A stretch of 52,068 nt of DNA from an uncultured Clostridia bacterium (GTDB lineage: Bacteria > Bacillota > Clostridia > Christensenellales > UBA1242), in the NCBI GenBank assembly GCA_947623775.1, contig CANQHL010000002.1:1-52068 (forward strand). Direction: 5' to 3'. Every line of letters begins with the position of its first letter. Positions within the stretch are counted from its first letter, which is position 1. The translations under genes were made by a program, and so were the position numbers. Positions 35,985 to 52,068 of this stretch are shown in pieces. The notes under the pieces are model-generated. The model saw only the letters and a list, made by a program, of their open reading frames with translations, was not told the DNA's origin and did no database searches.

Positions 35985-36165
35985 CAATTCTCCCCATTTA
36001 AGCAAAGAAAAAAAATAACACTAAATTATACAACATTTTTTGACCAAACTTTTGACCAAACTTTTTTACGAATTTTCACTGTTTTTTGGTCAAAATTTCA
36101 AATTTTAAGATAAAAATAAAAAAACGGCTAATCCCCTCTAAAATAGGGAAGATTAGCCACTTGGT
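35985..36165. repeat. Copy B of the ~180-bp direct repeat, directly downstream of tRNA-Leu
   Basis: See copy A. Contains the tRNA-Leu terminator hairpin GGCTAATC...GATTAGCC + T-run (minus strand) and overlaps the last 4 nt (ACCA) of the tRNA. Confidence 0.9.
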
Positions 36166-36243
36166 GCGGATAACAGGAGTTGAACCTGCACCCTTTCGGA
36201 CTGGAACCTAAATCCAGCGCGTCTGCCATTCCGCCATATCCGC
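36162..36243 (-). tRNA. tRNA-Leu (anticodon UAG), type II with long variable arm, CCA encoded
   Basis: Reverse complement is GCGGATATGGCGGAATGGCAGACGCGCTGGATTTAGGTTCCAGTCCGAAAGGGTGCAGGTTCAACTCCTGTTATCCGCACCA. Acceptor GCGGATA/TATCCGC. Anticodon stem CTGGA/TCCAG with loop TTTAGGT. Confidence 0.9.
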
Positions 36244-37250: not shown

Positions 37251-39224
37251 TCATAAAACCTGCTCATCCTTGTCTGATTGATTGTTCTGGACATATCCGA
37301 GTTCATTGTCTGGATAATTTTCAGGATGGTCAATTTTATCTAGATAAATTATTTTTTCATCATCAGTTGCCCACAATGAATCAAATGTTGCAAGCAATTC
37401 GGCACCAAGATACCTCTTGATAAACAATCTGACTTGTTTAACCTCGGTCATATCAGCCACTCTAAGTGAGAGCATTAAGGCATATTTTGCATTTGTGTTG
37501 GTTGGAATATCTGATGATGAAACATCATTGTTCATAATATCGTCAATTGTTATAAGTGGCATCTTTGCAAATGAAATGAATGATTTTGCATTTTCTTTTC
37601 CTATTTTATTTGAAATCAATGCTTCTCTTATAACTCCATTGTTATCATAGATGATGTTGGAAAGTTGTTCCCAGCCACGAGGGTCAATTGCAAATTCAGA
37701 CTTTTCTTTATCATATTTTGTATAGAAAACTTTATCTGAATAAGCCGCTACAAATGATGCTACAAGTGGGTGAATTCTTGGTTTTCCGTCAACAACTACA
37801 CTTCCCCATTCGAGCCAATCTTGTAAGTCAAGAGGTAGTTCAATGTGTGCGTTGAATCTTCTGAACAATGGCTCAGGCATAGGTGATGCAACGTCAGATT
37901 CTTTTGTGCTGTTTCCTGCGGCAATAACAACGCAGTTGTCAGGCAATTTGCCATAATTTCCATCTATGGAACGTTCAAGAACAATATGGTATACCAAACT
38001 TTGTTCATATTGACGAACATTGGTTATTTCATCAATAAACAAAACATGATTTCTTTCAGGGTCGTTTGCACAAACTTCCTTTATTCTTCTGTACCAAGTA
38101 GGCTCTATCCAAGAACTTTCCTTTGTTTGTTCGTTATAAGCGGTTTTACCGATAACCTCTTCTGGCAAAATGCCATCACGAAGTTGAATCATAACGCAAT
38201 CTGGGTCTATATCTTTTACACGTCTGCTTTTACCGACACCGCTTCTTCCGTGAAGCATAATGCTTAATTTGTTGTCAATATAAAATCTCAATTGTTCATC
38301 AATTGTCATAGGTCCGTCTTGAACGGAAACTTGAAATTTGTTTCTGTTTTTGGTTGGTGTTCTGCTGCTGTCAACTGAAATGTCAAAGAAGCCGTTTCCG
38401 GCATATTCACCATATCCATTCAAGAAATTTCTTGTTTGAGACAATGAATAATCATTTCCATTTACAGGCAATCCGGTAATTATACCTTCTGCAGGCGTAA
38501 TGTCTATTGGTGTTTTATCAGGAATGCTTGCATATCCTCTTGTGTTGAGGTGATCAAGCGTTTCATTATCGCAATTTATACGCCAAGTGATTGGCTCAAC
38601 TTCAAACCAATAACTCCTATCTTCAACCGCACTTCCGTCCGAAAATCTTGCTACATCGGTGGCTTTTGCTTTTATTTTAACAAATCGTCTTATTCTCCCG
38701 TCCACTTCACCCTCATATTCTTCACAATAAGCAGGGCCCTGTGCATCATCAAAAGTATAAGGATATTTCCTTCCTGTTTTGGTCAATTCGGAATTTGCCA
38801 ACATGGAATCCAACTTGAAAGTGTCGTGATAAATAGATTGTGGCCATACCCAATTTCTGTATATAAGTGTTCTCTCTTGTTTTGAAACTTGATATGGTCC
38901 AAATGGGTAAGCGTTTGAAAATGCAGATGCTTTTAACACAATATGTGGATGTGTGATGTTTGCTACACTTCCACTATTTCCCATTTTTTTCACATCTCGT
39001 ACATTTATTTCAGCAGTCTTTTTTCGGTCAACGGCCGCTCCACATGCAAGAGCAAAATCGGACACAACAATTTCTGGACTGAGGTTTCTTTTTGCAAGAG
39101 AGTCTGTGGTGTCAATAAACGCCTTATCTCTCATTTTTCCGTCACGTCCTTTGTTTTGCGAATTGTCAATTCCAGGTAAGAGTGCACTGTAAATATACTT
39201 ATTTATTTCAACATTATTGCTCAT
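37251..39224 (-). CDS. AAA+ ATPase (MoxR/AAA_5-like core) with ~300-aa N-terminal and ~150-aa C-terminal domains of unknown function
   Basis: Walker A LHGRSGVGKS, Walker B HVLFIDEITN, sensor-1 IAAGNS, PEPLFRRF (equivalent to the MoxR LDRF arginine region). N-terminal domain includes YWFEVEPITWRIN. Confidence 0.85.
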   Translation of the reverse strand: MSNNVEINKYIYSALLPGIDNSQNKGRDGKMRDKAFIDTTDSLAKRNLSPEIVVSDFALACGAAVDRKKTAEINVRDVKKMGNSGSVANITHPHIVLKASAFSNAYPFGPYQVSKQERTLIYRNWVWPQSIYHDTFKLDSMLANSELTKTGRKYPYTFDDAQGPAYCEEYEGEVDGRIRRFVKIKAKATDVARFSDGSAVEDRSYWFEVEPITWRINCDNETLDHLNTRGYASIPDKTPIDITPAEGIITGLPVNGNDYSLSQTRNFLNGYGEYAGNGFFDISVDSSRTPTKNRNKFQVSVQDGPMTIDEQLRFYIDNKLSIMLHGRSGVGKSRRVKDIDPDCVMIQLRDGILPEEVIGKTAYNEQTKESSWIEPTWYRRIKEVCANDPERNHVLFIDEITNVRQYEQSLVYHIVLERSIDGNYGKLPDNCVVIAAGNSTKESDVASPMPEPLFRRFNAHIELPLDLQDWLEWGSVVVDGKPRIHPLVASFVAAYSDKVFYTKYDKEKSEFAIDPRGWEQLSNIIYDNNGVIREALISNKIGKENAKSFISFAKMPLITIDDIMNNDVSSSDIPTNTNAKYALMLSLRVADMTEVKQVRLFIKRYLGAELLATFDSLWATDDEKIIYLDKIDHPENYPDNELGYVQNNQSDKDEQVL

Positions 39225-39362: not shown

Positions 39363-40034
39363 TCATTCAATATCCAAATAATCTCCGTCACCATAATCCT
39401 GTGGCAAATCTTCTTCGCCTTGCGATTTAACCGCCGAACCATCTTTGCCTTTGCTTAGCATATCAAACTTATAAACCAATGGTCTTTCATTTCTGAATTC
39501 CGGTGCAATCGAACACTCACTTTCAATTTTTTCGGCATTTGCAACATAAGGCTTTACTTTTTCAATACGCTTGTTGACAACATTTAATTTTTGGCATGTA
39601 TCCTCAAACAATTTTTCAAGTGCCTGCAACTGCTCCACTGAAATATCAACAAAAAATTTGTCTATTGCCAAATGCACCATTTCATCATTTGGCACGTCTT
39701 CCACGTTTTTATATTTTGTTTTTAAGTGGTCGTTTGCCTGCACAAGCATATCTCTGAGAAAGGGCAAAGACGCACCCTCGCTGTTTTTGCTTGAATTTAA
39801 TGTTTTTCTTTGCACAACAAATGGAAATTTAACAACTTGTGTTAACACTCTTTTTTCAGCCATCAACCTTGTAAGCAATGTTTTTGGATTGTTTTTCTCA
39901 AAACCCTTTACATTTTCATAAAAGTGTGCAGTGGTGATTTCTTCATAATCATGTCCATAAAGCGTTCTGAATTGTTCCGCTTCCTCTTTTGTTTTAAACA
40001 TTTTATCATGTCCTGAAACACCGTAAATTTTCAT
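39363..40034 (-). CDS. Soluble protein B3 (223 aa), C-terminal tail ...GDGDYLDIE
   Basis: GGAGG RBS. No signal peptide. N-terminus MKIYGVSGHDKMFKTKEEAEQFR resembles that of 41288-41893. Ends in the shared Y-[LI]-[DE]-[LI]-E tail (stop TGA). Confidence 0.8.
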   Translation of the reverse strand: MKIYGVSGHDKMFKTKEEAEQFRTLYGHDYEEITTAHFYENVKGFEKNNPKTLLTRLMAEKRVLTQVVKFPFVVQRKTLNSSKNSEGASLPFLRDMLVQANDHLKTKYKNVEDVPNDEMVHLAIDKFFVDISVEQLQALEKLFEDTCQKLNVVNKRIEKVKPYVANAEKIESECSIAPEFRNERPLVYKFDMLSKGKDGSAVKSQGEEDLPQDYGDGDYLDIE

Positions 40035-40047
40035 CTTTCCTCCGCTT

Positions 40048-40710
40048 TTACTCTAAGTCCAAATATCCAGCAAAGTCCTTTGCCTCCGGTGGCATGATGT
40101 CACTGTAATCAATATTATCCAAAACTTTATAATAATGATGAAATTCTCTTTCAACAATTTCATTTAAATCAAATGTGCTGTTTCTATCTATATAATATTT
40201 TTTTATGCTTGCAATTTTTTCATTTATACTGTTTATCATTTTGCAAGATTTCACATAGGCTTTTTTTAAATGTTCAACATCTTCTTTTGAAAATGCAACG
40301 CTGCGTCCATATATTCCCGGATAATAAATCAAGCCGTCCCATCTCAAACCTTTTTCGCTTTTTTCAATTTTGTCCATTGCGAAAATCAAAAATTCATGAA
40401 GTTCGTTAAGCATCGAAATTCTTATCGAGGTGTCAAGTTTGTCTCTTAAAACAGAACTTTCCACAAAATAACAACATTTGGTGTAAAGTTTTTGTTTTGC
40501 ATAAATTAATTGCCTTAAACTTTCTGCCGGTTTTGCCATGTAAACCTCTTTTGTGTCAGAAAAATCAGGGACGTCTACAACAACATCATCTTCCTTTCCA
40601 CTAATCAATTTCCACTCTTCCGCATCTTGATATTTTTCAAAAATCAATGGCATGAGGGATAAATTTCCGCTTTGTTCTCTTCTTGCAATTCCATATTTTG
40701 TGGTTTTCAT
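40048..40710 (-). CDS. Soluble protein B2 (220 aa), C-terminal tail ...FAGYLDLE
   Basis: AAGGAGA RBS, 13-nt gap to the next gene. Ends in the shared tail. Confidence 0.8.
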   Translation of the reverse strand: MKTTKYGIARREQSGNLSLMPLIFEKYQDAEEWKLISGKEDDVVVDVPDFSDTKEVYMAKPAESLRQLIYAKQKLYTKCCYFVESSVLRDKLDTSIRISMLNELHEFLIFAMDKIEKSEKGLRWDGLIYYPGIYGRSVAFSKEDVEHLKKAYVKSCKMINSINEKIASIKKYYIDRNSTFDLNEIVEREFHHYYKVLDNIDYSDIMPPEAKDFAGYLDLE

Positions 40711-40741: not shown

Positions 40742-41275
40742 TTATGCTTTTTGTATCTCCTGTTCTTCCTTTGTCTTTTGGCGTGAACGAGTTTCTCTCC
40801 ATGCTTTAACATCATCAACACCTGATGCAATCATATAGTTGAGTCCTCTCATCTTATCACTTGCAAAGCCTAAATCCATTACAAGCAGCTCAAGTGCCGC
40901 AGCAACTGAACTTGCAACCATGCCGCATTCCAACGCTACATGGCTGTTTAAGAATTTTTCCATTGCCTCATATTCTTTTAGGTTGTTTCCTTTGGCATAA
41001 TCAACAACAAAATCATTTGAATTTAAATAATCATCGGCGTCTGAGACATCATTGTAAGATATTTCTCCTCTATCCGCTTTATCCTTTAATTCCCGAACAT
41101 AATTTTTTTGATTGTCGTATACCTGCTGAAATTGCGTTGTCTCTTTCACCTGGTCTAAAGCACTTAAATAGTCTTTATTTTGTTGTGAGTACACATATAT
41201 TGTCGTTCCCAGTGCTGCTGGAACAATTGATGCAAGTACAAATCCACCTGCAATTTTCAATAAACCTTTAAACAT
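40742..41275 (-). CDS. Two-TM membrane protein M4 (most divergent member of the M family)
   Basis: N-terminus MFKGLLKIAGGFVLASIVPAALGTTIYVY, central RGEISYNDV motif, second hydrophobic segment ECGMVASSVAAALELLVMDLGF, charged tail. Confidence 0.8.
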   Translation of the reverse strand: MFKGLLKIAGGFVLASIVPAALGTTIYVYSQQNKDYLSALDQVKETTQFQQVYDNQKNYVRELKDKADRGEISYNDVSDADDYLNSNDFVVDYAKGNNLKEYEAMEKFLNSHVALECGMVASSVAAALELLVMDLGFASDKMRGLNYMIASGVDDVKAWRETRSRQKTKEEQEIQKA

Positions 41276-41287
41276 TTTCTACTCCAA

Positions 41288-41893
41288 TTATTCATTCTCG
41301 CTTTCTTCGACTGGCTCTTCTTTAATTCCATAACGCTCGTTTAATTGTTCAATCTTTTTATCAACTTCTTCAAGAGTTGCTTTCAATTCGTTATATTGTC
41401 TGAATGTGATTGTAGCATAAGGAGATATGCTGCTTGGTTGTTTATAATAAATTTTATCAACAATCACATCTTGTTCGTTAGCCACATCGAGTTGTTTGTT
41501 TTTTATGTTCTCATCTGATTTTTTAATTATTTCTTGCAAAAATTCATAACATACCCTATTGCATTTTAAAACCATTTTTTCATCACCTCTGCGGTTGTTA
41601 TTGAAAACAATGGCATGTTTTAGAGGTATTGAGCCTTTCAACTTCTTTAATTCATTGATATATTTGCAATTTTTCTCATATGGATGGTCCTTGAGAAGTT
41701 GCTCAATTGTATCATAAACTTTAATATTATCAGATTCTACATCTGGAACAATTTTGTATCTGTTCTCAGGCAATGTCAAATATTTGACTCCGCAAAACCT
41801 TGTTTCATCATATGGAGCATATTCCTCTCTGAACTTTTGTGCAACTTTAAATGTGCTGAACGCATAATCTTTTCCTGTTATTTTAAAAATCAT
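41288..41893 (-). CDS. Soluble protein B1 (201 aa), acidic tail ...EEPVEESENE (no YLDLE)
   Basis: GGAG RBS. N-terminus MIFKITGKDYAFSTFKVAQKFREEY is similar to B3. 12-nt gap to M4. Confidence 0.8.
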   Translation of the reverse strand: MIFKITGKDYAFSTFKVAQKFREEYAPYDETRFCGVKYLTLPENRYKIVPDVESDNIKVYDTIEQLLKDHPYEKNCKYINELKKLKGSIPLKHAIVFNNNRRGDEKMVLKCNRVCYEFLQEIIKKSDENIKNKQLDVANEQDVIVDKIYYKQPSSISPYATITFRQYNELKATLEEVDKKIEQLNERYGIKEEPVEESENE

Positions 41894-41926: not shown

Positions 41927-42511
41927 TTAATCTGCTATTTCTTCGGTGTATTCATCAATTGCTCTTTCGCGAGCATCTTGCTGTTTTTTCTCTCGTTTTT
42001 CTGCTGCCAAACGTTTTGCTTCGTCTAAATCCCATTCGCCACTGACTATCAAGTTATCACCGAAGCCGCTACGCCAATTAACCAAAGCGCACACTGCCGC
42101 AAGTGCAAAAGTTGAACCAACTCCAATGGCTGCTTTTACAAGTTGGTCGCGGGTTTTCAATATTCCCTGAAAATTTTCATCATCACTATACATTTGCCTT
42201 GCAATATCTTTTGACAAATTTGATTTGTGAGCTTCACTGTTTATTTCCTTGCTCTGGTCGAAGTACTCACCGTTTGACAATTCGCCCTCTTCAAAAAGCG
42301 TGTCAAGTTGCTGATTTTCCTCAAGTATTCTCTCTTGAACCGCATCTTGAACAAGCTTTGATTCGCGATATTCAACTTCTCTGTTGTCGTTTCCAGCAAT
42401 ACCGAGCAAAACACCTATAAATGCCACTCCGGTGGCAAATGCGGCAGGCACTATACCATGCCCGACAACCAATTTTACTCCGCCTTTAACTTTTTTTAAT
42501 AACGCTTGCAT
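41927..42511 (-). CDS. Two-TM membrane protein M3
   Basis: MQALLKKVKGGVKLVVGHGIVPAAFATGVAFIGVLLGIAG, EEGELSNGEYF motif, second TM AAIGVGSTFALAAVCALV, tail ...IDEYTEEIAD. Confidence 0.8.
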   Translation of the reverse strand: MQALLKKVKGGVKLVVGHGIVPAAFATGVAFIGVLLGIAGNDNREVEYRESKLVQDAVQERILEENQQLDTLFEEGELSNGEYFDQSKEINSEAHKSNLSKDIARQMYSDDENFQGILKTRDQLVKAAIGVGSTFALAAVCALVNWRSGFGDNLIVSGEWDLDEAKRLAAEKREKKQQDARERAIDEYTEEIAD

Positions 42512-43406: not shown

Positions 43407-43970
43407 TTATCTCTCTATTTCCTCAGAATACTCTTCGTCTTGTTTTTTCTTGTCCTCTTCTTCTTTTAGCAGATATGAGGTGTCCATTGCGTCAAAAGCG
43501 ATGTCGGCAAATTTTTCTACGTAGCCCGTTAAAAAACCTAAGCCAAGATATGCCAAAGAACCAAAGCCAAGTGCAGATGTCACGATATGCCCCACCATAA
43601 GTTTATCATCTTTTTTTAAGAGAGCATTATATTCTTCATCTTCGGCAAAAACCTCGTCTGCTGTTTTTTTCACAAGTTCATCTCTGTCTTGATTTTCTAG
43701 GTCTTTTTTCATTCTTAAATACTCGCCATCCGTGATTTCGCCATTTGCAAGTTGGTCGTCAAGTTCCGTCATTTCATCGGAAAGTTTATCATCGACAATA
43801 TTTTGAACCACTTCATAATTATAATATTCACCTAAATCGCGTTGAGTGGTTGCGTGTGCACCCAACGTTGCAAAGCCGGCAATTACCCCAACCGGAGTAA
43901 GGGCCATCGGTAAAGTAACAGTTACGCCAAGAACAAGTCCGCCTTCAATCATTTTTATAATTGATTTCAT
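43407..43970 (-). CDS. Two-TM membrane protein M2
   Basis: MKSIIKMIEGGLVLGVTVTLPMALTPVGVIAGFATLGA, ANGEITDGEYL motif, second TM VTSALGFGSLAYLGLGFLTG, tail ...DEEYSEEIER. Confidence 0.8.
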   Translation of the reverse strand: MKSIIKMIEGGLVLGVTVTLPMALTPVGVIAGFATLGAHATTQRDLGEYYNYEVVQNIVDDKLSDEMTELDDQLANGEITDGEYLRMKKDLENQDRDELVKKTADEVFAEDEEYNALLKKDDKLMVGHIVTSALGFGSLAYLGLGFLTGYVEKFADIAFDAMDTSYLLKEEEDKKKQDEEYSEEIER

Positions 43971-43987: not shown

Positions 43988-44491
43988 TTAAACTCTTATC
44001 ATATTTTCCGGCCGTATTTTGCCATCAATCAGCCGTTTTGGAGAAATTATTTTTTGTGCCAATGGAAGATAAGGTTGCATTATAATCACTCTCCCCTCAT
44101 TTTCCGTTTGTGAGGCGGTTTCTGTAAAATATTCTATATTTGCATTTACAAAAACTTTATCCCATACATCATTTATTTGATAAATTTGTTTAAGTTTTTT
44201 TATAAGTGCATCTTTCCTTGGCTCTATATCTGCTGAAACTTCCAGAGTGCCGACCTCATCAATCAAATCTCTGAGTTCTTCATGATTTAATTCATCAGCA
44301 AACAAATACACTTCCCTTTCTTTAAAATCATTTTCTGCCACTTTCTCTTCGCAAAGGATTTTTATTGTTGATTTCGGTATGTTTTCCAATTTGTAAATGT
44401 CGTCACTATCGGCAAAAATATATTTTTCTTTTTTCTCTTTCCCTTGAAAATAGATTATATTAAATTTGTAAACTTTGTCAAGTGTTAACAT
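43988..44491 (-). CDS. Family-A paralog A9 (167 aa), the only member lacking the YLDLE tail
   Basis: VYKFNIIYF, FADSDDIYKLENIPKST and ISPKRLIDGKIRP align with the other A members. Ends ...PENMIRV. Confidence 0.8.
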   Translation of the reverse strand: MLTLDKVYKFNIIYFQGKEKKEKYIFADSDDIYKLENIPKSTIKILCEEKVAENDFKEREVYLFADELNHEELRDLIDEVGTLEVSADIEPRKDALIKKLKQIYQINDVWDKVFVNANIEYFTETASQTENEGRVIIMQPYLPLAQKIISPKRLIDGKIRPENMIRV

Positions 44492-44514
44492 ATTTTTCTC
44501 CTGTTTTTTACTTG

Positions 44515-45132
44515 TTATTTAACCACTTCTTCAGAATAAGAATCCATCTTTTTTTGATACACTTTAATTTGATGCTCGGTCTGTTTTTGCTTTAACCTTT
44601 TTTCTTTTTCTTCCGCTTCCTCTTCTGCCAACTCTTGCCCTTGACGGCATGCTTTTACACCTGCATTATAAAGCGCATAACCAAGCCCTATTCCAAATGA
44701 TACCATTGTAAAAACTGTTAAGCCGCCACCAATTGTCATCAATGAAATTGCAGCCTTTTTTAATTGCTCGTCTTGTTTTAACATTCCGTTATACTCCTCA
44801 TCAGAGGCGAAAATTTCCGCTACGGTTTTTTGTTCAATTGCGTGCTTATGTAAATTATCATCAAGATTATGTTTTAATTTCTTATATTCGCTTTCTGTGA
44901 TTTCTCCATCGGCAAATTGTTTTTCAAGTTCTTCATTTTCTATTGTAAGAGTGTCTTGCACAATCTCCTGAACCTGCTCATTTTCATAAAATTGTGTATA
45001 TCTATCATCTCTTAATAGATAAGCGCCACCTGTGCCAAGCCCGGCACCTAATCCCATGCAACCCGCTATCATAACACCATACGATGCGGCAAACGCAAGT
45101 CCGCCTTTTATCCTTTTTAAAATTGATTTCAT
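44515..45132 (-). CDS. Two-TM membrane protein M1
   Basis: MKSILKRIKGGLAFAASYGVMIAGCMGLGAGLGTGGAYLL, ADGEITESEYK motif, second TM LMTIGGGLTVFTMVSFGIGLGYAL, tail ...MDSYSEEVVK. Confidence 0.8.
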   Translation of the reverse strand: MKSILKRIKGGLAFAASYGVMIAGCMGLGAGLGTGGAYLLRDDRYTQFYENEQVQEIVQDTLTIENEELEKQFADGEITESEYKKLKHNLDDNLHKHAIEQKTVAEIFASDEEYNGMLKQDEQLKKAAISLMTIGGGLTVFTMVSFGIGLGYALYNAGVKACRQGQELAEEEAEEKEKRLKQKQTEHQIKVYQKKMDSYSEEVVK

Positions 45133-45153
45133 TTTTGCTCCTATTCTTCAAAC

Positions 45154-45672
45154 TTATTCCAAATCTAGATATGCCCCATCATAATTGTTTGCTTTTTCTT
45201 CGGGCGGACAAATTTTTCCATCAATCAATTGTTGCGGCGAAATAACGGTCTGTGCAGAAGAGAAAAATGGCTGTATAATATTTATTCTGCCCGTGTAATC
45301 GGTGAAATAGTCAATGTTTTTATTTACAAAAACCTTGCACCATTTATCGTCGGCATGATATATACGCCTAAGATTTTGTTCTAATGCTTCTCTTTGAGGT
45401 TCTTTGTCTTTTGAAACGGTCAGGCTGCTTACTTCATTAATTAAATCTCTCAACCCCATTTTTGTCAACTCGTCGCCAACTAAATATGCCTTTACTTCCT
45501 CAAACTTTTCCCCATCTTGAGAACTTTTATCGCAAATTATCAGCGTTGTAGTTTTAGGAATACCATTCAACTGAAAAACATCGTCGCTATCGGAAAATAA
45601 AAATTTAGACTTCTTTTCCTCGCCCTCGTAATACACCACCTTAAATCGATAAATACTTCCAAATGTTGCCAT
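45154..45672 (-). CDS. Family-A paralog A8 (172 aa), tail ...YDGAYLDLE
   Basis: AAGGAGG RBS. IYRFKVVYY, FSDSDDVFQLNGIPKTT, ISPQQLIDGKICP. Confidence 0.8.
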   Translation of the reverse strand: MATFGSIYRFKVVYYEGEEKKSKFLFSDSDDVFQLNGIPKTTTLIICDKSSQDGEKFEEVKAYLVGDELTKMGLRDLINEVSSLTVSKDKEPQREALEQNLRRIYHADDKWCKVFVNKNIDYFTDYTGRINIIQPFFSSAQTVISPQQLIDGKICPPEEKANNYDGAYLDLE

Positions 45673-45714
45673 TTTTCCTCCTTATTAAGTTGATTTTTCT
45701 AACATTTTTTATTT

Positions 45715-46254
45715 CTATTCCAAATCTAAATATGGTCGGCTTTCATCTTCTTTCTCAAATGGTCGACTTTCGTCTGCTTTCTCAAGCGGGAATATTTTGC
45801 CGCATGCAATTTGTTTCGGAAAAATAATGGTCTCTTTGCCAAGCCATAACGGTGACAAAATTATTCTTCTAACAACCGGATCGCAGTAGTCCACACTTCT
45901 ATTTATATAAATTTTATTGCTTTCATCGGGATCACTGCAATATTTTTCAAGCACTTTTATCATTCTCTCCTTAAAATCATATAATTTATATGATACTTTC
46001 AATTGTTGCAACGTTTCAATTTCTTTTCTTGCCTCTTCTTTTGTCAATTCTTCGCCAACCATATAAGTGCTTTGCAATTCCCATTCTTTATCATGCCCGG
46101 CAGTTGAGCGACAATAGATTTTTGTTGTTGTTTCTGGCACGCCCTCCAACTTGTAAATATCATCACTATCGGAAAATACAATCTTTTTTCTTTCCGCCTT
46201 TCTTCCCGCATAATAATAAATCTCAAATTCGTAAATTTTATCGTTTACTATCAT
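45715..46254 (-). CDS. Family-A paralog A7 (179 aa), tail ...DESRPFEKEDESRPYLDLE
   Basis: AGGAG RBS. IYEFEIYYY, FSDSDDIYKLEGVPETT. 27-bp tandem duplication in the tail-coding region. Confidence 0.8.
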   Translation of the reverse strand: MIVNDKIYEFEIYYYAGRKAERKKIVFSDSDDIYKLEGVPETTTKIYCRSTAGHDKEWELQSTYMVGEELTKEEARKEIETLQQLKVSYKLYDFKERMIKVLEKYCSDPDESNKIYINRSVDYCDPVVRRIILSPLWLGKETIIFPKQIACGKIFPLEKADESRPFEKEDESRPYLDLE

Positions 46255-46268
46255 TTTTACTCCTATTT

Positions 46269-46808
46269 TTATTCCAAATCAAGATATAAGTCACCCTCAT
46301 TGTTTTTCTTTTCTTCATTTTCGCCATTAATTTGTTTGATTGGATAAATCTTTCCGTTTTTTATTTGTTTTGGAGAAATGGGAATGAATTCTCTTGTCCA
46401 CCAAAACCAAGAAGATACAATAATCCTATTTCTGATAGAATTTGTATCAAGGTCTATATTATTATTTAAATAAATTGTATCAGAAGTTTCATCTTTGCAG
46501 TAGGCTTTAAGGGCTTTTAAAGTAAGATTTCTTGCATCGGAAATAGAGAGTTCGTTTAATTTTTTAATTTCCGCCGCTGCGTCTTCCTGGCTCATCTCAT
46601 CGCCTATTAAATATTCGGCTTCATTTTCCCAATCTTTATCATCTTTTAAGTTTTTATAGTAGCAATAAATGTGGTGTGTAGTCTTTGGCACACCTTCTAA
46701 ACCATATATATCATTACTATCGGAATAAACAAATTTCTTTTTGCCATCTACAGTCGTGCCGTCCCAATAGAAAATCTCAAATCTATAAACTTTGTCTTTT
46801 AAAACCAT
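46269..46808 (-). CDS. Family-A paralog A6 (179 aa), tail ...EGDLYLDLE
   Basis: AGGAG RBS. VYRFEIFYW, YSDSNDIYGLEGVPKTT, ISPKQIKNGKIYP. Confidence 0.8.
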   Translation of the reverse strand: MVLKDKVYRFEIFYWDGTTVDGKKKFVYSDSNDIYGLEGVPKTTHHIYCYYKNLKDDKDWENEAEYLIGDEMSQEDAAAEIKKLNELSISDARNLTLKALKAYCKDETSDTIYLNNNIDLDTNSIRNRIIVSSWFWWTREFIPISPKQIKNGKIYPIKQINGENEEKKNNEGDLYLDLE

Positions 46809-46822
46809 TTTTGCTCCTATTT

Positions 46823-47389
46823 TTATTCCAAATCGAGATATAAGTCGCCCACATCAATTTTCTTTACTTCTTTTTTAGCGTTAATCTGCTCAGTTGAATA
46901 AATCTTGCCGTTTACAATCTGTGATGTAGAAATTATTTTGCGATCAGATGCTGGTGAAATTATTTTTATTCTCTCACGAATGGAATCACCATTGGTCAAT
47001 TTAATATTTTTATTTAAATAAATTTTATCTCTATTCTCTTCTTTTGTGTTATCCTGCACGCTGTTAAGAAATTTTTGAAGTCCATCTAAAGCATCTGTTT
47101 TGTAGCTCTCCCCGTAGAATTCCACGTAAAAATCTTTTAGTTTTTTTATTTCATTTTTTGCTTCTTCGGCTGTTATTCTATCTCCTATATCATATTGACC
47201 AACGACTTTCCAGTGTTCATACTCTTGATTAAGGTCGCAACAGCGAACATGAATGGTACAGGTAGTCTGTGGCAAATCTTGCAAAGAGTATATGTTGTCC
47301 TCGTCCGAAAACATACGCAGGCAATCCATTTTTCCTTTTTCGTCAAAATACCAAATTTCAAACATATATCCTTCGTCTTTAATTAACAT
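46823..47389 (-). CDS. Family-A paralog A5 (188 aa), tail ...VGDLYLDLE
   Basis: AGGAGA RBS. GYMFEIWYF, FSDEDNIYSLQDLPQTT, STSQIVNGKIY. Confidence 0.8.
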   Translation of the reverse strand: MLIKDEGYMFEIWYFDEKGKMDCLRMFSDEDNIYSLQDLPQTTCTIHVRCCDLNQEYEHWKVVGQYDIGDRITAEEAKNEIKKLKDFYVEFYGESYKTDALDGLQKFLNSVQDNTKEENRDKIYLNKNIKLTNGDSIRERIKIISPASDRKIISTSQIVNGKIYSTEQINAKKEVKKIDVGDLYLDLE

Positions 47390-47401
47390 TTTGTCTCCTT
47401 T

Positions 47402-47965
47402 TTATTCCAAATCAATGTATGCTCTATCGTCTTCAACGTCTCCTCTTTTTATTTGCCCAATTGGATAAATTTTGCCATTTACAAGTTGTGATGGAGATAT
47501 AATTTTGTTGTTCGAAGATGGCGGAACGACTCTTACTCTCGCCTTAATGGCAGCACTGCAGTCCAAATCAATATTTTTGTTTAAATAAATTTTATCTGCA
47601 CCAATATCTCTTGTATTATTTTTCTCACCTTTGCAAAATGCTTTAAGGCTATCAAGGATTGCTTCCTTATTGATTCTTGCACCAATATCGTCCTCGTCAA
47701 CACAAAATTCTTCTATTGCCTTTGTTTCTTTTTCCGCTTCTTCAAGCGTAATTTTATCCCCTATATCATATTCACCAGCAACACTCCAGTAAACCTGATG
47801 TTCTTTAAGATTGAGATAGTACAAACCGATATAAAAGGTTGTCTGTGGCACATCTTCCAATGCAAATATTTCTGCTTTGTCCAAGTACATCGTTTTTTTT
47901 GCTTTGTTTTTTGTCTTGTCTATATACCAAACCTCAAATTTATATACTTCGTCTTTGATCAGCAT
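47402..47965 (-). CDS. Family-A paralog A4 (187 aa), tail ...DDRAYIDLE
   Basis: AAGGAGA RBS. VYKFEVWYI, IFALEDVPQTT, ISPSQLVNGKIYP. Confidence 0.8.
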   Translation of the reverse strand: MLIKDEVYKFEVWYIDKTKNKAKKTMYLDKAEIFALEDVPQTTFYIGLYYLNLKEHQVYWSVAGEYDIGDKITLEEAEKETKAIEEFCVDEDDIGARINKEAILDSLKAFCKGEKNNTRDIGADKIYLNKNIDLDCSAAIKARVRVVPPSSNNKIISPSQLVNGKIYPIGQIKRGDVEDDRAYIDLE

Positions 47966-47983
47966 TCTTTCTCCTTATTTTTG

Positions 47984-48553
47984 TTATTCTAAATCAAGAT
48001 ATAAGTCACCCGCATCAATTTTCTTTACTTCATTTTTTGAATTAATGTGCTCAGTTGGCACAATCCTGCCGTTTACAATTTGTGATGGTGAAATGGTTTT
48101 GAAGTCGCTATCTGACGGAATAATTGATATTCTCGCATTAATGGCAGCCACACAATCCAAGTCAATATTTTTGTTTATAAAAATATTTTCTACATCCGCA
48201 TCTCTTGTGTTATTTTTTTCATTTCTGCAAAAGGCTTTAAGGCTATATAAGGCTCTTATCTTGTAACTATATTCCGTTTCGCCCTCATCAACTTCAAGTT
48301 TTTCTAAAGCCTCCAATTCCTTTTTTGCTTCATCAAGTGTGATTTTATCCCCTATTCTATAATAACCTATCGTATGCCAGAGTGTCGGATTTTCCTTTAT
48401 ATCCTTATGGTTTGCCAAAATACAATAGGCAGTTTGTGGAACACTTTCTAGCGTGTTTATATCATTACTGTCCGAATATAAAATCATTTTTTCTGCTTTT
48501 TCATGGTTAATATACCAAATCTCAAATTCATAGAGATCGTCTTTAATTAACAT
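47984..48553 (-). CDS. Family-A paralog A3 (189 aa), tail ...AGDLYLDLE
   Basis: AAGGAGGG RBS. LYEFEIWYI, YSDSNDINTLESVPQTA, ISPSQIVNGRIVP. Confidence 0.8.
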   Translation of the reverse strand: MLIKDDLYEFEIWYINHEKAEKMILYSDSNDINTLESVPQTAYCILANHKDIKENPTLWHTIGYYRIGDKITLDEAKKELEALEKLEVDEGETEYSYKIRALYSLKAFCRNEKNNTRDADVENIFINKNIDLDCVAAINARISIIPSDSDFKTISPSQIVNGRIVPTEHINSKNEVKKIDAGDLYLDLE

Positions 48554-48565
48554 TTTCCCTCCTTT

Positions 48566-49114
48566 TTATTCCAAGTCAAGGTACGGTCTATCGTCCTCAA
48601 TTTCTCCACTTTCTATTTTCTCAATTGGATAAATTTTTCCATTTACAAGTTGTTTTGGAGATATATATTGAAAATACATTCTTATACTTACATGCGGACT
48701 TACAGGAAATCTTCCTGAAATGGAATCTTTATACTCAATGTTTCTATTTATTAAAATTTCTTCAGTAGATTTCTTTTTGCAATATGATTTAAGAGCAGCA
48801 ATTGTTTTTTCCTTGTCTTTGCGAAATTTCTCCGGCACGTCAAGTTTGCTTAAAATTTCTAATTCCTCTCTTGCTTCCTGTTTTGTAAGTTTTTCAGCCA
48901 CTATATAGTCACCTTGTGCGCCTCTCCATGTTTGACCATCAGATTCCAGGACATAGCCCCAAATTTTGGTCACCTTCTGCGGAATACCGTCAAGTGCATA
49001 TATATCATTGTTGTCCGAATAGATAATTTTGCTTTTTTTGTTTTCCTCATTAGGACCGGCATCGCAATCAATGTATTCAATTTCAAATTTGTAAATCTTG
49101 TCTTTAAAAACCAT
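48566..49114 (-). CDS. Family-A paralog A2 (182 aa), tail ...DDRPYLDLE
   Basis: GAGGAG RBS. IYKFEIEYI, YSDNNDIYALDGIPQKV, ISPKQLVNGKIYP. Confidence 0.8.
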   Translation of the reverse strand: MVFKDKIYKFEIEYIDCDAGPNEENKKSKIIYSDNNDIYALDGIPQKVTKIWGYVLESDGQTWRGAQGDYIVAEKLTKQEAREELEILSKLDVPEKFRKDKEKTIAALKSYCKKKSTEEILINRNIEYKDSISGRFPVSPHVSIRMYFQYISPKQLVNGKIYPIEKIESGEIEDDRPYLDLE

Positions 49115-49134
49115 TTTTGCTCCTCGAAAATTTT

Positions 49135-49662
49135 TTATTCTAATTCGATATAAGAATTGTCGCCATTTAGTTTACTGCTGTTTATTTGTTCAAGTGAGTG
49201 AATTTTCCCATTTACAATTTGCTTTGGAGATATATAAATGCAGGTTTTTGACCACCAGGAAGATATTATTATTCTATCCATAATAGATTCTTCATTAAGG
49301 GGCACATTTTTATTTATATAAATTTTTGGAGTTTGCTTTTTATTGCAAAATGATTGAAGAGCGGCTAAAGTTTTCTCTTTGACATCGCTAAATCCCGACG
49401 TAATTTCGATTTTGCTTATTTTTTCAATCTCCTCTTTGGCTTCTTCGGTTGTAATCTCCTCACCAATCAAATAGAAATCTTCCAATTTCCAATTAGTGAT
49501 TTCATTAAGGTTTCTATAAAAGCACTTGATTATAACGCATGATTTAGGCACATCTTCTAAGGCATAAATATCGTTGCTATCCGAATACATTTTCTTTTCG
49601 GGTTTTGCCATTTCTGTATTTGAATAAAGTTCAAATTTGTAGATTTTGTCTTTAATTATCAT
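49135..49662 (-). CDS. Family-A paralog A1 (175 aa), tail ...GDNSYIELE
   Basis: First ATG (49662) lies 21 nt downstream of a consensus -10. The ORF-track GTG at 49695 overlaps the promoter. IYKFELY, YSDSNDIYALEDVPKSC, ISPKQIVNGKIH. Confidence 0.8.
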   Translation of the reverse strand: MIIKDKIYKFELYSNTEMAKPEKKMYSDSNDIYALEDVPKSCVIIKCFYRNLNEITNWKLEDFYLIGEEITTEEAKEEIEKISKIEITSGFSDVKEKTLAALQSFCNKKQTPKIYINKNVPLNEESIMDRIIISSWWSKTCIYISPKQIVNGKIHSLEQINSSKLNGDNSYIELE

Positions 49663-49683: not shown

Positions 49684-49712
49684 ATTATATATCACAAATT
49701 ATATTTTGTCAA
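49684..49712 (-). promoter_or_regulatory. Promoter of the family-A array (A1 through M2, 11 genes)
   Basis: Minus-strand TTGACA (49712-49707), 17 nt, TATAAT (49689-49684). Confidence 0.7.
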
Positions 49713-49725
49713 GGCAGGACATTCT

Positions 49726-50320
49726 CGGCAAACCAGATGTTTGACGTTTAGCGAGTTATGTGATAATTATTGTTTTTATTTTCCCTCTCTTTTAAGTTTC
49801 ACCAAACCAGATGTTTGACGTTTAGCGAATGAGGTGATATTTAAAAAAATTAAATTTCATTGTCTTTCCAGCAGATTTTCTAACCAAATGTTTGACGGCA
49901 AACTTAGTTTGCATCATTAGCGAATTAAATCATATTAAAAAAATCAAATTTCATTATCGCTCAAATATCGTTAAACGAAGTAAAAAAAGGTGCATAATGC
50001 ACCCAAACCAAATGTTTGACGGCAAACCAGATGTTTGACGTCTAGCGAATGAAATGATATTTAAAAATTTAAATTTCATTGTCTTTCAAGCAAATGTTCT
50101 AACCAGATGTTTGAAGGCAAACTTAGTTTGCATCATTAGCGAATTAAATCATATTAAAAAAATTTAAATTTCATTATCGCTCAAACACCATTAAACGAAG
50201 TAAAAAAAAAGGTGCATAATGCACCCAAACCAAATGTTTGACGGCAAACCAGATGTTTGGCGTTTGGCGAATGATGTGATAATTAATGTTTTTATTTCCC
50301 CTCTCTTTTAAGTTTCAATA
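49726..50320. repeat. Array of structured intergenic repeats (about 220-bp super-unit x2 plus flanking partial units)
   Basis: Eight copies of AAACC(A/G)(A/G)ATGTTTG(A/G)(C/A)(G) (49736, 49811, 49888, 50012, 50031, 50107, 50234, 50253). Hairpin GCAAAC-TTA-GTTTGC (49898-49912, 50117-50131). CATCATTAGCGAAT. AT-rich AAATTTCATT(G/A)TC segment. Hairpin GGTGCA-TAA-TGCACC preceded by A7-9 (49989-50003, 50211-50225), which reads as hairpin + T-run on the minus strand. Confidence 0.85.
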
Positions 50321-50393
50321 GATGTGATATTAAAAAATAAACACTCGCTTTTCGATAGTGGCAAACAAAAATAAAGAGGGTTATAACACCCCC

Positions 50394-51251
50394 TTATTCT
50401 AAATCTAAATATAAATCTCCCTCCGCTTTTTGTCCAACCTTTCCGGTGGCTATATATTCACTTAATGTCTTGGATAACGGACGTTCGGCAAGTTTGGTCA
50501 AAATTTCAATTCCTATTTGTTTGTTTTTATCTTTTTTTCCGAAGAAAACCATATTTTTCCCAAGTGCAAACTCTGTTTGTGATGTAGGATTTGACTTGTA
50601 AAGTCTTGCAAGTTCTTTTTGTGTTTGAACTACTTCGCGTTTGAACTCTCTCCTGTCCCTCTCTACAAAATTGGACGCATGAATCGGAATCCCTTCGAGC
50701 AATTCAAGATATTTCTCCATCGCATAAGGGTTGTTCATCTGTTTTGCTTGTTCGTGACATGCGATTATTGCCTCAATCTGGTACTTAACAATCTGGTTAT
50801 TCCTTATCTTTTCAAACGTCTTTTCACTTCGTGTCTGAATTTCATCCAAGTCCTCCGTAAGGCTATTAAATCTTGCCTCCTCAGTATAATGCAACTTGGA
50901 AATTTTTAAACTTATAGCGTCAATTTCATCCAAATCATCATTATATTGTTTAACTAAATCTCTAAGTTCTTTTCCGCAAGGATCGGTTGCATAAAGTTTA
51001 TAGGCATTAGCGAGAATATGGTTGAAATTTCTGCTATATGCTTTTTCATCTGTTTTCATATCAATTCTAGCATTTGTTGGTTTTCCCGCCCTGCCCGTAA
51101 GCGTATAATATGCAGTAATGGCATTGACCTGTCCAAGTTCAGCCAATTTTTCCATCTCTTTCTCAACCTGAGTAGCATCTTTGGATATAAATTGTCTTGA
51201 CCACAGCGTAATAAAATCATCATCCAATTCGTTAAAGTTATTTTCTAACAT
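50394..51251 (-). CDS. Singleton helical protein H (285 aa), tail ...AEGDLYLDLE
   Basis: AGGAGA RBS, own consensus promoter. No signal peptide or TM. No similarity by eye to the A, B or M families, yet it carries the identical GDLYLDLE C-terminus. Confidence 0.8.
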   Translation of the reverse strand: MLENNFNELDDDFITLWSRQFISKDATQVEKEMEKLAELGQVNAITAYYTLTGRAGKPTNARIDMKTDEKAYSRNFNHILANAYKLYATDPCGKELRDLVKQYNDDLDEIDAISLKISKLHYTEEARFNSLTEDLDEIQTRSEKTFEKIRNNQIVKYQIEAIIACHEQAKQMNNPYAMEKYLELLEGIPIHASNFVERDRREFKREVVQTQKELARLYKSNPTSQTEFALGKNMVFFGKKDKNKQIGIEILTKLAERPLSKTLSEYIATGKVGQKAEGDLYLDLE

Positions 51252-51268: not shown

Positions 51269-51297
51269 ATTATACCCCGCCAACGAATAAATGTCAA
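51269..51297 (-). promoter_or_regulatory. Promoter of 50394-51251
   Basis: Minus-strand TTGACA (51297-51292), 17 nt, TATAAT (51274-51269). ATG lies 17 nt downstream. Confidence 0.7.
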
Positions 51298-51379
51298 GTC
51301 ACACCTCACTTCAACAAATTTATTCTTTTTTCTTTAACATTCCTCAATCTATTTCCTTTTTTTCCAAAAAAATATTCAA

Positions 51380-51960
51380 CAAAGTTCCCTTGCCCACCGA
51401 TTTTACGGGGCATTTTTCCCGGGAAGATAGTAAATGCTCAGCATTTTGCTTGAGTAATCAAGCAAACACTGCGAAATACAACAAAAAACTAGGCTCTTGC
51501 GGGAAACTTAGTTTCCATCACTAACGAATGAAATCGTATTTAAAAAATCAATTTTCACTCTCTTTTCCAATACCATTAAACGAAGTAATAAAAAAGGGGT
51601 ATAATACCCCCGGGAAGATAGTAAATGCTTAGCATTTTGCTTGAATAATCAAGCAAACACTGCGGAATACAACAAAAAACTAGGCTCTTGCGGGAAACTT
51701 AGTTTCCATCACTAACGAATGGAATCATATTTAAAAAATCAATTTTCGCTCTCTTTTAATTTGCATAAAAGGGTTGCATAATGCACCCCAGCAGTGTTCA
51801 TTAGAAAAAGTTTTAACTTTTTCGCATGCCCCGTATTCAATAAAATTATCCCTTTCCTGTTAATATTTATGGGGCATTTTTCCCGGCCGGGAAGATGTTG
51901 CCGAAGGCAACGGCAAGCAGATTGCTTGCCAAGAACACTGCTGAATTAATTAAATACAAA
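51380..51960. repeat. Repeat units related to the 49.7-kb family, each carrying a 5S-rRNA-3'-end-like module
   Basis: Two ~190-bp tandem units (about 51400-51610 and 51600-51790) read GGGGCATTTTTCCCGGGAAGATAG + hairpin AAATGC-t(c/t)a-GCATTT + hairpin GCTTGA-(g/a)taa-TCAAGC + AACACTGCG ... GGAAAC-TTA-GTTTCC (51502-51516, 51693-51707) CATCACTAACGAATG ... GGGGTA-TAA-TACCCC (51596-51610). A third variant lies at 51871-51953. Confidence 0.8.
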
Positions 51961-51961
51961 C

Positions 51962-51990
51962 AAAAAAAAGCAACCTCGTGCGGTTGCTTT
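51962..51990 (-). terminator. Intrinsic terminator of the rRNA operon (after 5S)
   Basis: Minus-strand AGCAACC-gcacga-GGTTGCT followed by T8. Confidence 0.8.
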
Positions 51991-51999
51991 CCTTATATT

Positions 52000-52068
52000 C
52001 CAGCAGTGTTCTATCTTCCCGGACCGTCGCCAGCCAAGTATTTTCGACGATGAAAAGCTTAACTTCTG
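52000..52068 (-). rRNA. rrf: 5S rRNA, 3' portion (gene continues past the right edge)
   Basis: Reverse complement is CAGAAGTTAAGCTTTTCATCGTCGAAAATACTTGGCTGGCGACGGTCCGGGAAGATAGAACACTGCTGG. It aligns with the conserved Firmicutes 5S segment ...GGAAGTTAAGC...GCGCCGATGGTA...GAGAGTAGGACGCYGCCAGG. Confidence 0.8.

Follow-up and report, generated by a model that had tools for sequence, protein, structure and literature searches.

We analysed 52,068 nucleotides (nt) of DNA from an uncultured Clostridia bacterium (contig CANQHL010000002.1 of assembly GCA_947623775.1; this whole stretch is called the window). Between positions 43988 and 49662, the window encodes nine minus-strand paralogues, family A (A1-A9), whose products of 167-189 amino acids (aa) align end to end. 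A1-A8 all terminate in Y-(I/L)-(D/E)-L-E directly before the stop codon, and the same pentapeptide tail ends proteins of other families in the same gene island. A preliminary description of this DNA had reported the nine copies, and the sequence blocks that it listed as common to A1-A9 were all found in our alignment.

The array is not strictly contiguous. A1-A8 follow one another with spacers of 10-42 nt, each containing an AGGAG-type ribosome-binding site (RBS), and B1, a gene of membrane protein family B, lies between A8 and A9 (Table 1). A8-B1 and A9-B2 form a duplicated two-gene unit. Pairwise identity among the nine copies is 26-49% for protein and ~60-68% for DNA. Since a perfect promoter precedes A1 and no terminator-like hairpin was found on the coding strand within the array, the array looks like an operon that is read as one transcription unit. 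A further minus-strand promoter with a 12/12 match to the sigma-70 consensus (44481-44454) is located within the 5′ end of A9.

Table 1. Features of the island, family A first. L and P numbers are our labels for relatives in other genomes or contigs.
Feature	Position	Strand	Description
A1	49135-49662	-	175 aa; tail NSYIELE; orthologues L008_2, L051_2 (bootstrap 98)
A2	48566-49114	-	182 aa; tail RPYLDLE; groups with P0013 (bootstrap 81); 3′ end common to A4
A3	47984-48553	-	189 aa; tail DLYLDLE; body A4-like or L007_1-like; 3′ linker 70% identical to that of A5
A4	47402-47965	-	187 aa; tail RAYIDLE; orthologues L007_2, P0008 (bootstrap 87); 3′ end A2-like
A5	46823-47389	-	188 aa; tail DLYLDLE; orthologues L007_3, P0006 (bootstrap 100); 3′ linker A3-like, unlike that of its orthologues
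A6	46269-46808	-	179 aa; tail DLYLDLE; copy used for the AlphaFold2 model
A7	45715-46254	-	179 aa; tail RPYLDLE
A8	45154-45672	-	172 aa; tail GAYLDLE; A8/A9/P0012 clade (bootstrap 100)
A9	43988-44491	-	167 aa; tail lost through ~31-nt deletion and early TAA stop
Promoter	49684-49712	-	sigma-70 consensus TTGACA-17-TATAAT, 12/12 match; directly upstream of A1
F	50394-51251	-	285 aa; all-helical, soluble; ends GDLYLDLE; first gene of the island
Promoter	51269-51297	-	sigma-70 consensus TTGACA-17-TATAAT, 12/12 match; upstream of F
B1	44515-45132	-	two transmembrane segments; weak SHOCT-like motif; tail SYSEEVVK
B2	43407-43970	-	family B membrane protein; tail EYSEEIER
B3	41927-42511	-	family B membrane protein; tail EYTEEIAD; own 12/12 promoter at 42562-42534
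D	41288-41893	-	201 aa; no tail; distant relative of C (hhalign 94%); orthologues in L007, L008
C, first copy	40048-40710	-	220 aa; ends AGYLDLE; hhalign against A <2%
C, second copy	39363-40034	-	223 aa; ends GDYLDIE; relatives in L001, L002 tailed
AAA_5 (MoxR-like) ATPase	37251-39224	-	657 aa; novel 300-aa N-terminal domain; Pfam AAA_5 E = 4e-5; phrog_1297 E = 1e-42
Non-coding spacer	49700-50390	-	repeats of hairpin units (CAAAC-ATCTG-GTTTG among them); hairpins resembling terminators

Unrelated proteins share the C-terminal tail

The junction between successive genes, reported earlier to recur at the DNA level at three sites, is near-identical at two of them: a 41-nt motif is present at 46252 and 46806 with at most one mismatch (0 expected by chance). 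The third site (45133) is looser, having a 16-nt RBS/start part and an 18-nt tail part in common with the motif and a different spacer. On the coding strand, the junction reads D-L-Y-L-D-L-E and a stop codon, then an AGGAG RBS and the ATG of the following gene. It is conserved because it encodes the invariant C-terminal pentapeptide, common to unrelated families, which the preliminary description had missed.

The window contains 11 tail-bearing open reading frames (ORFs; 10 from a motif scan plus one ending YLDIE), compared with 0.05 expected by chance. Those outside family A are F (GDLYLDLE) and two family C genes (AGYLDLE and GDYLDIE); families E and G, found in related genomes, are also tailed. 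Among 56 distinct tail-bearing ORFs of the window and related loci, Tyr is present in 56/56, Leu (position -2) in 55/56, and Glu (position -1) in 54/56, and the residues preceding the Tyr have the consensus [DN]-[KD]-[SND]. In the same ORFs, the tail Leu is encoded by CTT (19), TTG (16) or TTA (15), with CTA, CTC and CTG also used, and both Tyr codons, both Glu codons and all three stop codons occur. Since the residues are invariant while synonymous codons and stops vary, selection acts on the tail peptide, not on the DNA.

We compared the families by profile-profile alignment (hhalign) with the tails trimmed off. The probability of homology was <2% for A against C, E or F, 99.7% between the long and short forms of A, and 94-96% for C against the tail-less families D and D2. 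Since A is unrelated to C, E and F, at least four unrelated superfamilies carry the tail. Within a single superfamily the tail can be present or absent, as C is tailed and D and D2 are not. No hydrophobic segment was found in any tailed family; thus, the tailed proteins are soluble and lack Sec signals. In a model of A6, the tail is predicted to be flexible, with a predicted local distance difference test score (pLDDT) of 56-68 (AlphaFold2).

Sorting signals of the LPXTG and PEP-CTERM types combine an N-terminal signal peptide with a hydrophobic C-terminal helix that follows the motif. The tailed proteins have a different layout, with no hydrophobic segment (maximum 19-residue Kyte-Doolittle hydropathy, KD19, <=1.28) and a tail that ends at the stop codon. 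Searching the literature for YLDLE, YIDLE and other forms of the motif yielded nothing but noise. We take the tail to resemble the FtsZ C-terminal peptide (DYLDIP...), the eukaryotic LC3-interacting region (LIR) motif and the clathrin box, a likeness to which we give no weight as evidence.

The residues at positions -6 to -8 of the tail cluster by genome, across unrelated families too. GDLYLDLE occurs four times in the window (F included), DKSYIDLE seven times in L002, NDNYIDLE three times in L003, and DKSY..LE three times in L008. The nucleotides encoding these genome-specific residues before the Tyr differ at synonymous sites. Either co-evolution with a receptor or gene conversion long ago could underlie the clustering.

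Family A genes have bodies and 3′ ends of different history

The mosaic relationships proposed earlier among the copies are real. In sliding windows, the centres of A3 and A4 are 76-78% identical, and over the last 90 nt A3 and A5 are 81% and A2 and A4 85% identical. Triplet tests (3SEQ-like permutation tests) were significant for A4 as an A3-like body joined to an A2-like 3′ end (p = 2.6e-4; p = 2.7e-3 at third codon positions) and for A3 as an A4-like body joined to an A5-like 3′ end (p = 1.9e-3; p = 0.35 at third positions). Since the A3/A5 signal vanishes at third codon positions, the exchange events are old. The global pairwise homoplasy index (PHI; own implementation) was not significant (p = 0.26-0.58), probably because sites are saturated; in its place we used the triplet tests and compared bodies with linkers.

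A neighbour-joining tree recovered groups that cross genomes: A5/L007_3/P0006 (bootstrap 100), A4/L007_2/P0008 (87), A1/L008_2/L051_2 (98), A2/P0013 (81), and A8-A9/P0012 (100). Thus, most family A duplications predate the species splits. The bodies of A3, A4 and A5 have their best match in an orthologue from another genome (57-62% identity), with the A5 body closest to P0006 and the A4 body closest to L007_2. The linkers before the tail match paralogues of the same genome best (A3/A5, 70%; A4/A2, 56%, tied with L008_2), and the L007_2 linker matches that of L007_3. In addition, a repeat of 84% identity (D10) covers the A4-end/A5-start and A2-end/A3-start junctions, which lie two genes apart. 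The discordant best matches of bodies and linkers, together with a repeat that crosses junctions, support the earlier proposal that the junctions are substrates for exchange.

Copy number and content vary, as had also been suggested: the window has nine A and three to four B genes, L008 three A and eight B, and L007 at least three A and two B. The orthologues common to the window and its relatives are colinear. Synonymous sites of the paralogues are heavily diverged or saturated (proportion of synonymous differences, pS, 0.48-0.79), and ratios of nonsynonymous to synonymous substitution (dN/dS) of 0.20-0.41 between orthologues indicate purifying selection, with no sign of gene-wide diversifying selection. 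The claim that the repertoire is actively shuffling does not agree with these values or with the presence of orthologues in other species (bootstrap 81-100).

We conclude that the mosaicism is real, local and old: the 3′ linker/tail ends have been homogenised within the genome, while the bodies keep their orthologues in two rabbit-gut species. The array evolves by birth and death, with differential loss and gain (nine, three and at least three copies), and gene conversion or unequal exchange has been old, in short tracts, and concentrated at the junction of 3′ linker-tail, RBS and 5′ start. A tandem string of paralogues with junction-mediated exchange is a phenomenon of a known kind. Each gene of this array shows two evolutionary layers, a birth-and-death body with orthology and a 3′ module homogenised within the genome.

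A rabbit-gut contig of low coverage (L050, ENA ERZ27249657, 1387 nt) is 99.9% identical to 46228-47718 of the window over A4/A5; its A5 has a short deletion, and its A6 (P0001) lacks 39 nt in frame. These deletions are either strain-level structural variation or assembly errors at 1.4x coverage.

Family A has no described relatives and is confined to a narrow clade

The AlphaFold2 model of A6, built from a 33-sequence alignment, had a pLDDT of 91.5 and a predicted template-modelling score (pTM) of 0.83. It comprises an N-terminal sheet of four strands, a pair of helices and a small C-terminal beta unit (ISPxQIxNGKI), followed by a helix-then-coil linker and the tail, both of low confidence. 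The most conserved parts of the family are beta-1, the YSDSxDIYxLExVP loop, the I(Y)xNxNI strand, ISPxQIxNGKI and the tail; the second helix, the loops and the linker are the least conserved. Foldseek found no significant neighbour of A6 in the PDB (best E = 0.33, query-normalised TM <=0.23) or in BFVD; the only similarities in these two sets were weak ones, over 70 aa, to tiny phage ORFs.

No Pfam, PHROG, PADLOC or NCBIfam model matches family A, and scans of C, D, F and an ORF of 183 aa against the same libraries returned nothing. Searches of PDB sequences with the A profile, F and the ATPase gave nothing significant. PADLOC-DB defence models had no match to A, C, D or F, and only weak, sub-threshold matches to B and the ATPase. 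A6 and the ATPase had no exact-protein record in the contig index. In the libraries and papers searched, nothing described corresponds to family A, to its fold or to the shared pentapeptide.

Members of family A are very rare. A word-indexed search of 5.8 billion proteins yielded two family A matches, and an exhaustive profile search of 1.84 billion (1.84e9) representative proteins yielded 31, of which 17 had E <1e-30. Among the profile matches, Y-x-x-L-E is the ending of every full-length relative whose C-terminus is intact. Members of a shorter subfamily of ~155 aa are likewise tailed, and resemble A most clearly in the N-terminal ~80 residues. The genomic relatives are two rabbit-gut "uncultured Clostridia" metagenome-assembled genomes (MAGs) and a few ENA and Logan contigs. 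L008 has the order F, three A genes, eight B genes, D, a 230-aa gene and dnaA. L007 and L001, which are parts of one contig, have F, three A genes, two B genes, D and a 239-aa gene, and further along two C genes, three E genes, an M60 peptidase gene, an ABC transporter gene, a TetR gene and the ATPase. In L002/L044, eleven consecutive tail-bearing ORFs lie upstream of the ATPase. L003 and L006 contain arrays of short A-type genes (eight and six, respectively), including a 372-aa multi-module fusion, and all are tailed. The 372-aa protein (L003 8288-9406; L006 1810-2928) ends DKDY(V/I)NLE and appears, from ...xPxQIxxG(K/R)(Y/F) endings that repeat by eye, to consist of several A-short-like modules.

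A GTDB-wide DNA scan for [DN][KDNE]xYIDLE-TAA returned 35 stretches. Clusters of tailed ORFs were present only in the two rabbit-gut MAGs, and elsewhere the few in-frame matches were single and isolated. Metagenome contigs of IMG/VR and JGI gave isolated matches to the tail pattern and no clusters. The tail system is restricted to a narrow clade of gut Clostridia. None of 50,697 phage records and none of 72,556 plasmid records had a tblastn match to A, and IMG/VR held no relatives of family A; a prophage or plasmid origin of the island has no support in these collections. The island of the window starts just past a tRNA-Leu gene (36162-36243, minus strand). The homologous island of L008 abuts dnaA (10906-12312), and is therefore close to the replication origin.

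Other families, promoters and repeats of the island

The L008 orthologue of F has 65% aa identity to it and ends KSYLDLE. F has no Pfam or PDB match, and its single-sequence AlphaFold model (pLDDT 42) was unusable. Family B proteins have two clear transmembrane peaks and a conserved tail of their own, E-Y-[ST]-E-E-[IV]. Family B also forms its own tandem arrays, with three to four copies in the window (perhaps including 40742-41275) and eight in L008 (3157-9016). A distant B-like array of six copies (25% identity) is present in a mouse-gut Eubacteriales MAG (L141 7989-12083), and its proteins have a different conserved tail, LGSLDDFL(N/D)SL.

Five sigma-70 promoters with 12/12 matches lie within 9 kb, all on the coding (minus) strand, and four of the five sit directly before genes, namely F, A1, the 183-aa ORF (promoter at 43279-43251, minus strand) and B3. 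An extended -10 promoter with an 11/12 match precedes the ATPase. The repeated non-coding hairpin units of the spacer upstream of A1 are also present at 51300-52068 and at about 500-702, and are of the types CAAAC-ATCTG-GTTTG, GCAAAC-TAA-GTTTGC and GGAAAC-TAA-GTTTCC. An 18-mer of the repeat units, CGTCAAACATCTGGTTTG, occurs 10 times compared with 0.05 expected. L007 and L008 have copies of 78-91% identity, which are better conserved than the flanking coding DNA, and no Rfam family matched the units at gathering score. They could be small RNAs, operator arrays or elements resembling miniature inverted-repeat transposable elements (MITEs).

Candidate partners of the tail

The ATPase is near tail arrays in three genomes (the window, L001 and L002/L044). 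In the window it follows the tailed genes directly; in L001 and L002/L044, where it is also downstream of them, other genes lie between. Its family is Clostridia-wide, with at least 213 homologues, proteins of ~700 aa. Some of these relatives have a DUF6273-like N-terminal region, and some genomes contain multiple paralogues. Large phages encode "MoxR-like" ATPases to which the AAA core has a distant relationship. ATPase homologues in other lineages (L046-L048) have no tail-bearing ORFs nearby, and large tail arrays are also present on contigs that lack the ATPase (L003, L006 and L008). Co-occurrence of the ATPase and the tailed families is thus inconsistent, and the wide spread of the ATPase in lineages without nearby tailed ORFs weakens the case for it as a dedicated tail receptor.

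A second candidate is on the contig of L001/L007. There, L049 (14667-21321) encodes an FtsK/SpoIIIE ATPase of 955 aa and, after it, four helical ORFs of 91-97 aa, of which one shows a weak likeness to WXG100 (E = 0.007). The cluster also contains an ORF of 133 aa and two Sel1-repeat proteins, and no member is tailed. We saw no canonical EssC, EssB or EsaA, components of type VII secretion systems (T7SS).

The window also contains a giant minus-strand ORF of 3350 aa (3098-13150) with a lipoprotein-type signal (…LLYAC), a beta-rich repetitive body and no Pfam match; it probably serves as a surface adhesin. We rejected the idea that it is a scaffold for the tails, since it has this lipoprotein signal and seems to be a surface protein, extracellular and rich in beta structure.

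A proposed portable docking tail and its alternatives

A model that would accommodate these data is that the tail works as a short linear motif, portable between unrelated proteins, by which they all dock onto a single shared partner. The role of the tail would most likely be that of a targeting or export signal, and the diversified bodies would be the cargo or the parts that determine specificity. That the tail has a common reader is probable, since a flexible, invariant, free pentapeptide is under selection on unrelated soluble folds within one clade. Taken as a whole, a portable docking or targeting tail, most likely for export, on an orphan array that evolves by birth and death, is an explanation that we judge evenly poised between right and wrong.

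As to what the reader does, we rank first, by analogy and as less likely than not, a targeting or export tag with diversified cargo. It ranks first because T7SS substrates have an analogous YxxxD/E motif and because a relative's contig encodes an FtsK/SpoIIIE ATPase with small helical ORFs. It is also possible, though we doubt it more than we credit it, that Y-(I/L)-x-L-E-COOH is an undescribed sorting or docking tag by which dozens of fast-evolving orphan proteins of at least four folds are served by one dedicated machine, with A as the largest cargo family. Such a machine would be new, either as a non-Sec export route or as a pathway for assembly or remodelling.

Several observations weigh against the docking explanation. 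A9 persists tail-less after its ~31-nt deletion and early TAA. Gene neighbourhood is the strongest link between the tail and any receptor or export machine; no FtsK-type ATPase gene was found in the window, and the FtsK-like ATPase of L049 is ~25-30 kb from the arrays, has a single FtsK domain in Pfam and, at 955 aa, is shorter than EssC (~1,480 aa). Family A is predicted to be alpha/beta and not the helical hairpin typical of T7SS substrates, and YxxxE is a match at two residues that may be a coincidence. The perfect sigma-70 promoters and the purifying selection fit an abundant intracellular structural or regulatory role equally well. Lastly, the arrangement of A and B, strings of cytosolic and membrane paralogues, also resembles T7SS immunity strings (PMC9484751).

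The preliminary description had thought of immunity, decoy or variable-partner families. In the immunity alternative, the cytosolic A string and the membrane B string would be orphan immunity genes against the polymorphic toxins of competitors, with the tail as a shared binding hot-spot or framework. In its favour are tandem paralogues that are not identical, keep common blocks at the 5′ and 3′ ends and exchange sequence across junctions, a copy number that differs among relatives, and parallel cytosolic and membrane strings; esaG and tipC show the same pattern (PMC9484751), and one relative has a T7SS-like cluster on the same contig. However, no toxin gene (LXG, Rhs, nuclease or similar) was found in or beside the island, and no protein matched DUF600, TipC or any immunity or defence model. 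A tail on at least four unrelated folds, including a helical protein of 285 aa, is unexpected for a toxin-specific interface, and the paralogues are of ancient origin, evolve under purifying selection (dN/dS 0.2-0.4) and have orthologues conserved across species. We consider an immunity repertoire possible but unlikely; if it were correct, esaG/tipC-type strings would extend to uncultured Clostridia with entirely new folds.

Tethering by a disordered C-terminal peptide is a common mode of substrate recognition by AAA+ proteins. The tail could be an adaptor or degron tag that tethers proteins to an AAA+ machine for remodelling, unfolding or degradation, with the neighbouring MoxR-like AAA_5 ATPase as the candidate. 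The position of the ATPase downstream of tailed genes in the window, L001 and L002/L044 is consistent with this, as is its 300-aa N-terminal domain of no known family. The at least 213 homologues across Clostridia, the L046-L048 ATPases without nearby tailed ORFs and the big arrays on the ATPase-less contigs L003, L006 and L008 all argue against it, and we know of no MoxR-type ATPase that acts as an unfoldase for proteolysis. This role is improbable.

Least of all do we credit a DNA-level function, in which the 3′ end or junction is kept as a recombination site or translational-coupling element: although the junction includes the RBS and next start codon, is near-identical over 41 nt at two sites and is crossed by exchange tracts (D10), the codon usage rejects this explanation of tail conservation, as invariant residues are encoded by freely varying codons (six Leu, both Tyr, both Glu, three stops), and the tail is likewise the ending of genes that close an array and of genes from unrelated families, where the DNA that follows differs.

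Should the tail serve for sorting or docking, it would represent a new protein-targeting code in Gram-positive gut anaerobes. A one-line sequence rule would then list the full set of clients of the pathway, and the five-residue handle (DKSYIDLE-COOH) could be used to fish for the receptor.

Comparison with known systems

The esaG/DUF600 genes of S. aureus and the tipC genes of streptococci form tandem T7SS immunity strings of small, non-identical paralogues; they have conserved end blocks, and recombination at 3′ ends, intergenic regions and 5′ starts alters copy number and makes mosaics, while tsaI is a parallel string of membrane-protein immunity genes (Garrett et al., 2022; PMC9484751). Family A is likewise a set of tandem non-identical paralogues with conserved end blocks, recombination between paralogues and variable copy number, and family B is a parallel membrane-protein string comparable to tsaI. 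Unlike EsaG and TipC, family A has no DUF600 or TipC homology (Pfam, NCBIfam, PDB sequence; Foldseek PDB E >0.3), no toxin-like domain is present in the window, and the gene upstream of A is F, which has no family match. The A paralogues are also far older (26-49% aa identity), and what is conserved at their 3′ ends is a free C-terminal peptide of five residues, which unrelated families carry too.

The 657-aa protein beside the tailed genes has an AAA_5 core like those of the MoxR/AAA_5 and phage "MoxR-like" ATPases (phrog_1297). It differs from MoxR/AAA_5 ATPases in that it has a novel 300-aa N-terminal domain and lacks a VWA partner gene.

Substrates of T7SS have a YxxxD/E "export arm" in an unstructured C-terminus, which is read by the FtsK/SpoIIIE-type ATPase EccC/EssC (PMC9600955), and Lap1 targeting factors have an FxxxD motif (Klein et al., 2022; PMC9600955). 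The tail resembles the export arm in that Tyr-x-x-x-acidic is in the unstructured C-terminus of otherwise different proteins, a weak match in which two positions are specified, and a relative's contig encodes an FtsK/SpoIIIE ATPase beside small helical ORFs. In contrast to T7SS substrates, family A is predicted to be alpha/beta (A6, 179 aa) and has no WXG100 or LXG Pfam match; Y-[IL]-x-L-E is also longer and stricter than the T7SS motif and is exactly at the carboxyl end.

A more distant analogy is with the cohesins and dockerins of cellulosomes. Dockerins are folded, secreted modules of ~70 aa, whereas the tail is a five-residue peptide on proteins without a signal peptide. The likeness is that in both cases many unrelated proteins of Clostridia would carry a common C-terminal docking element for a shared partner.

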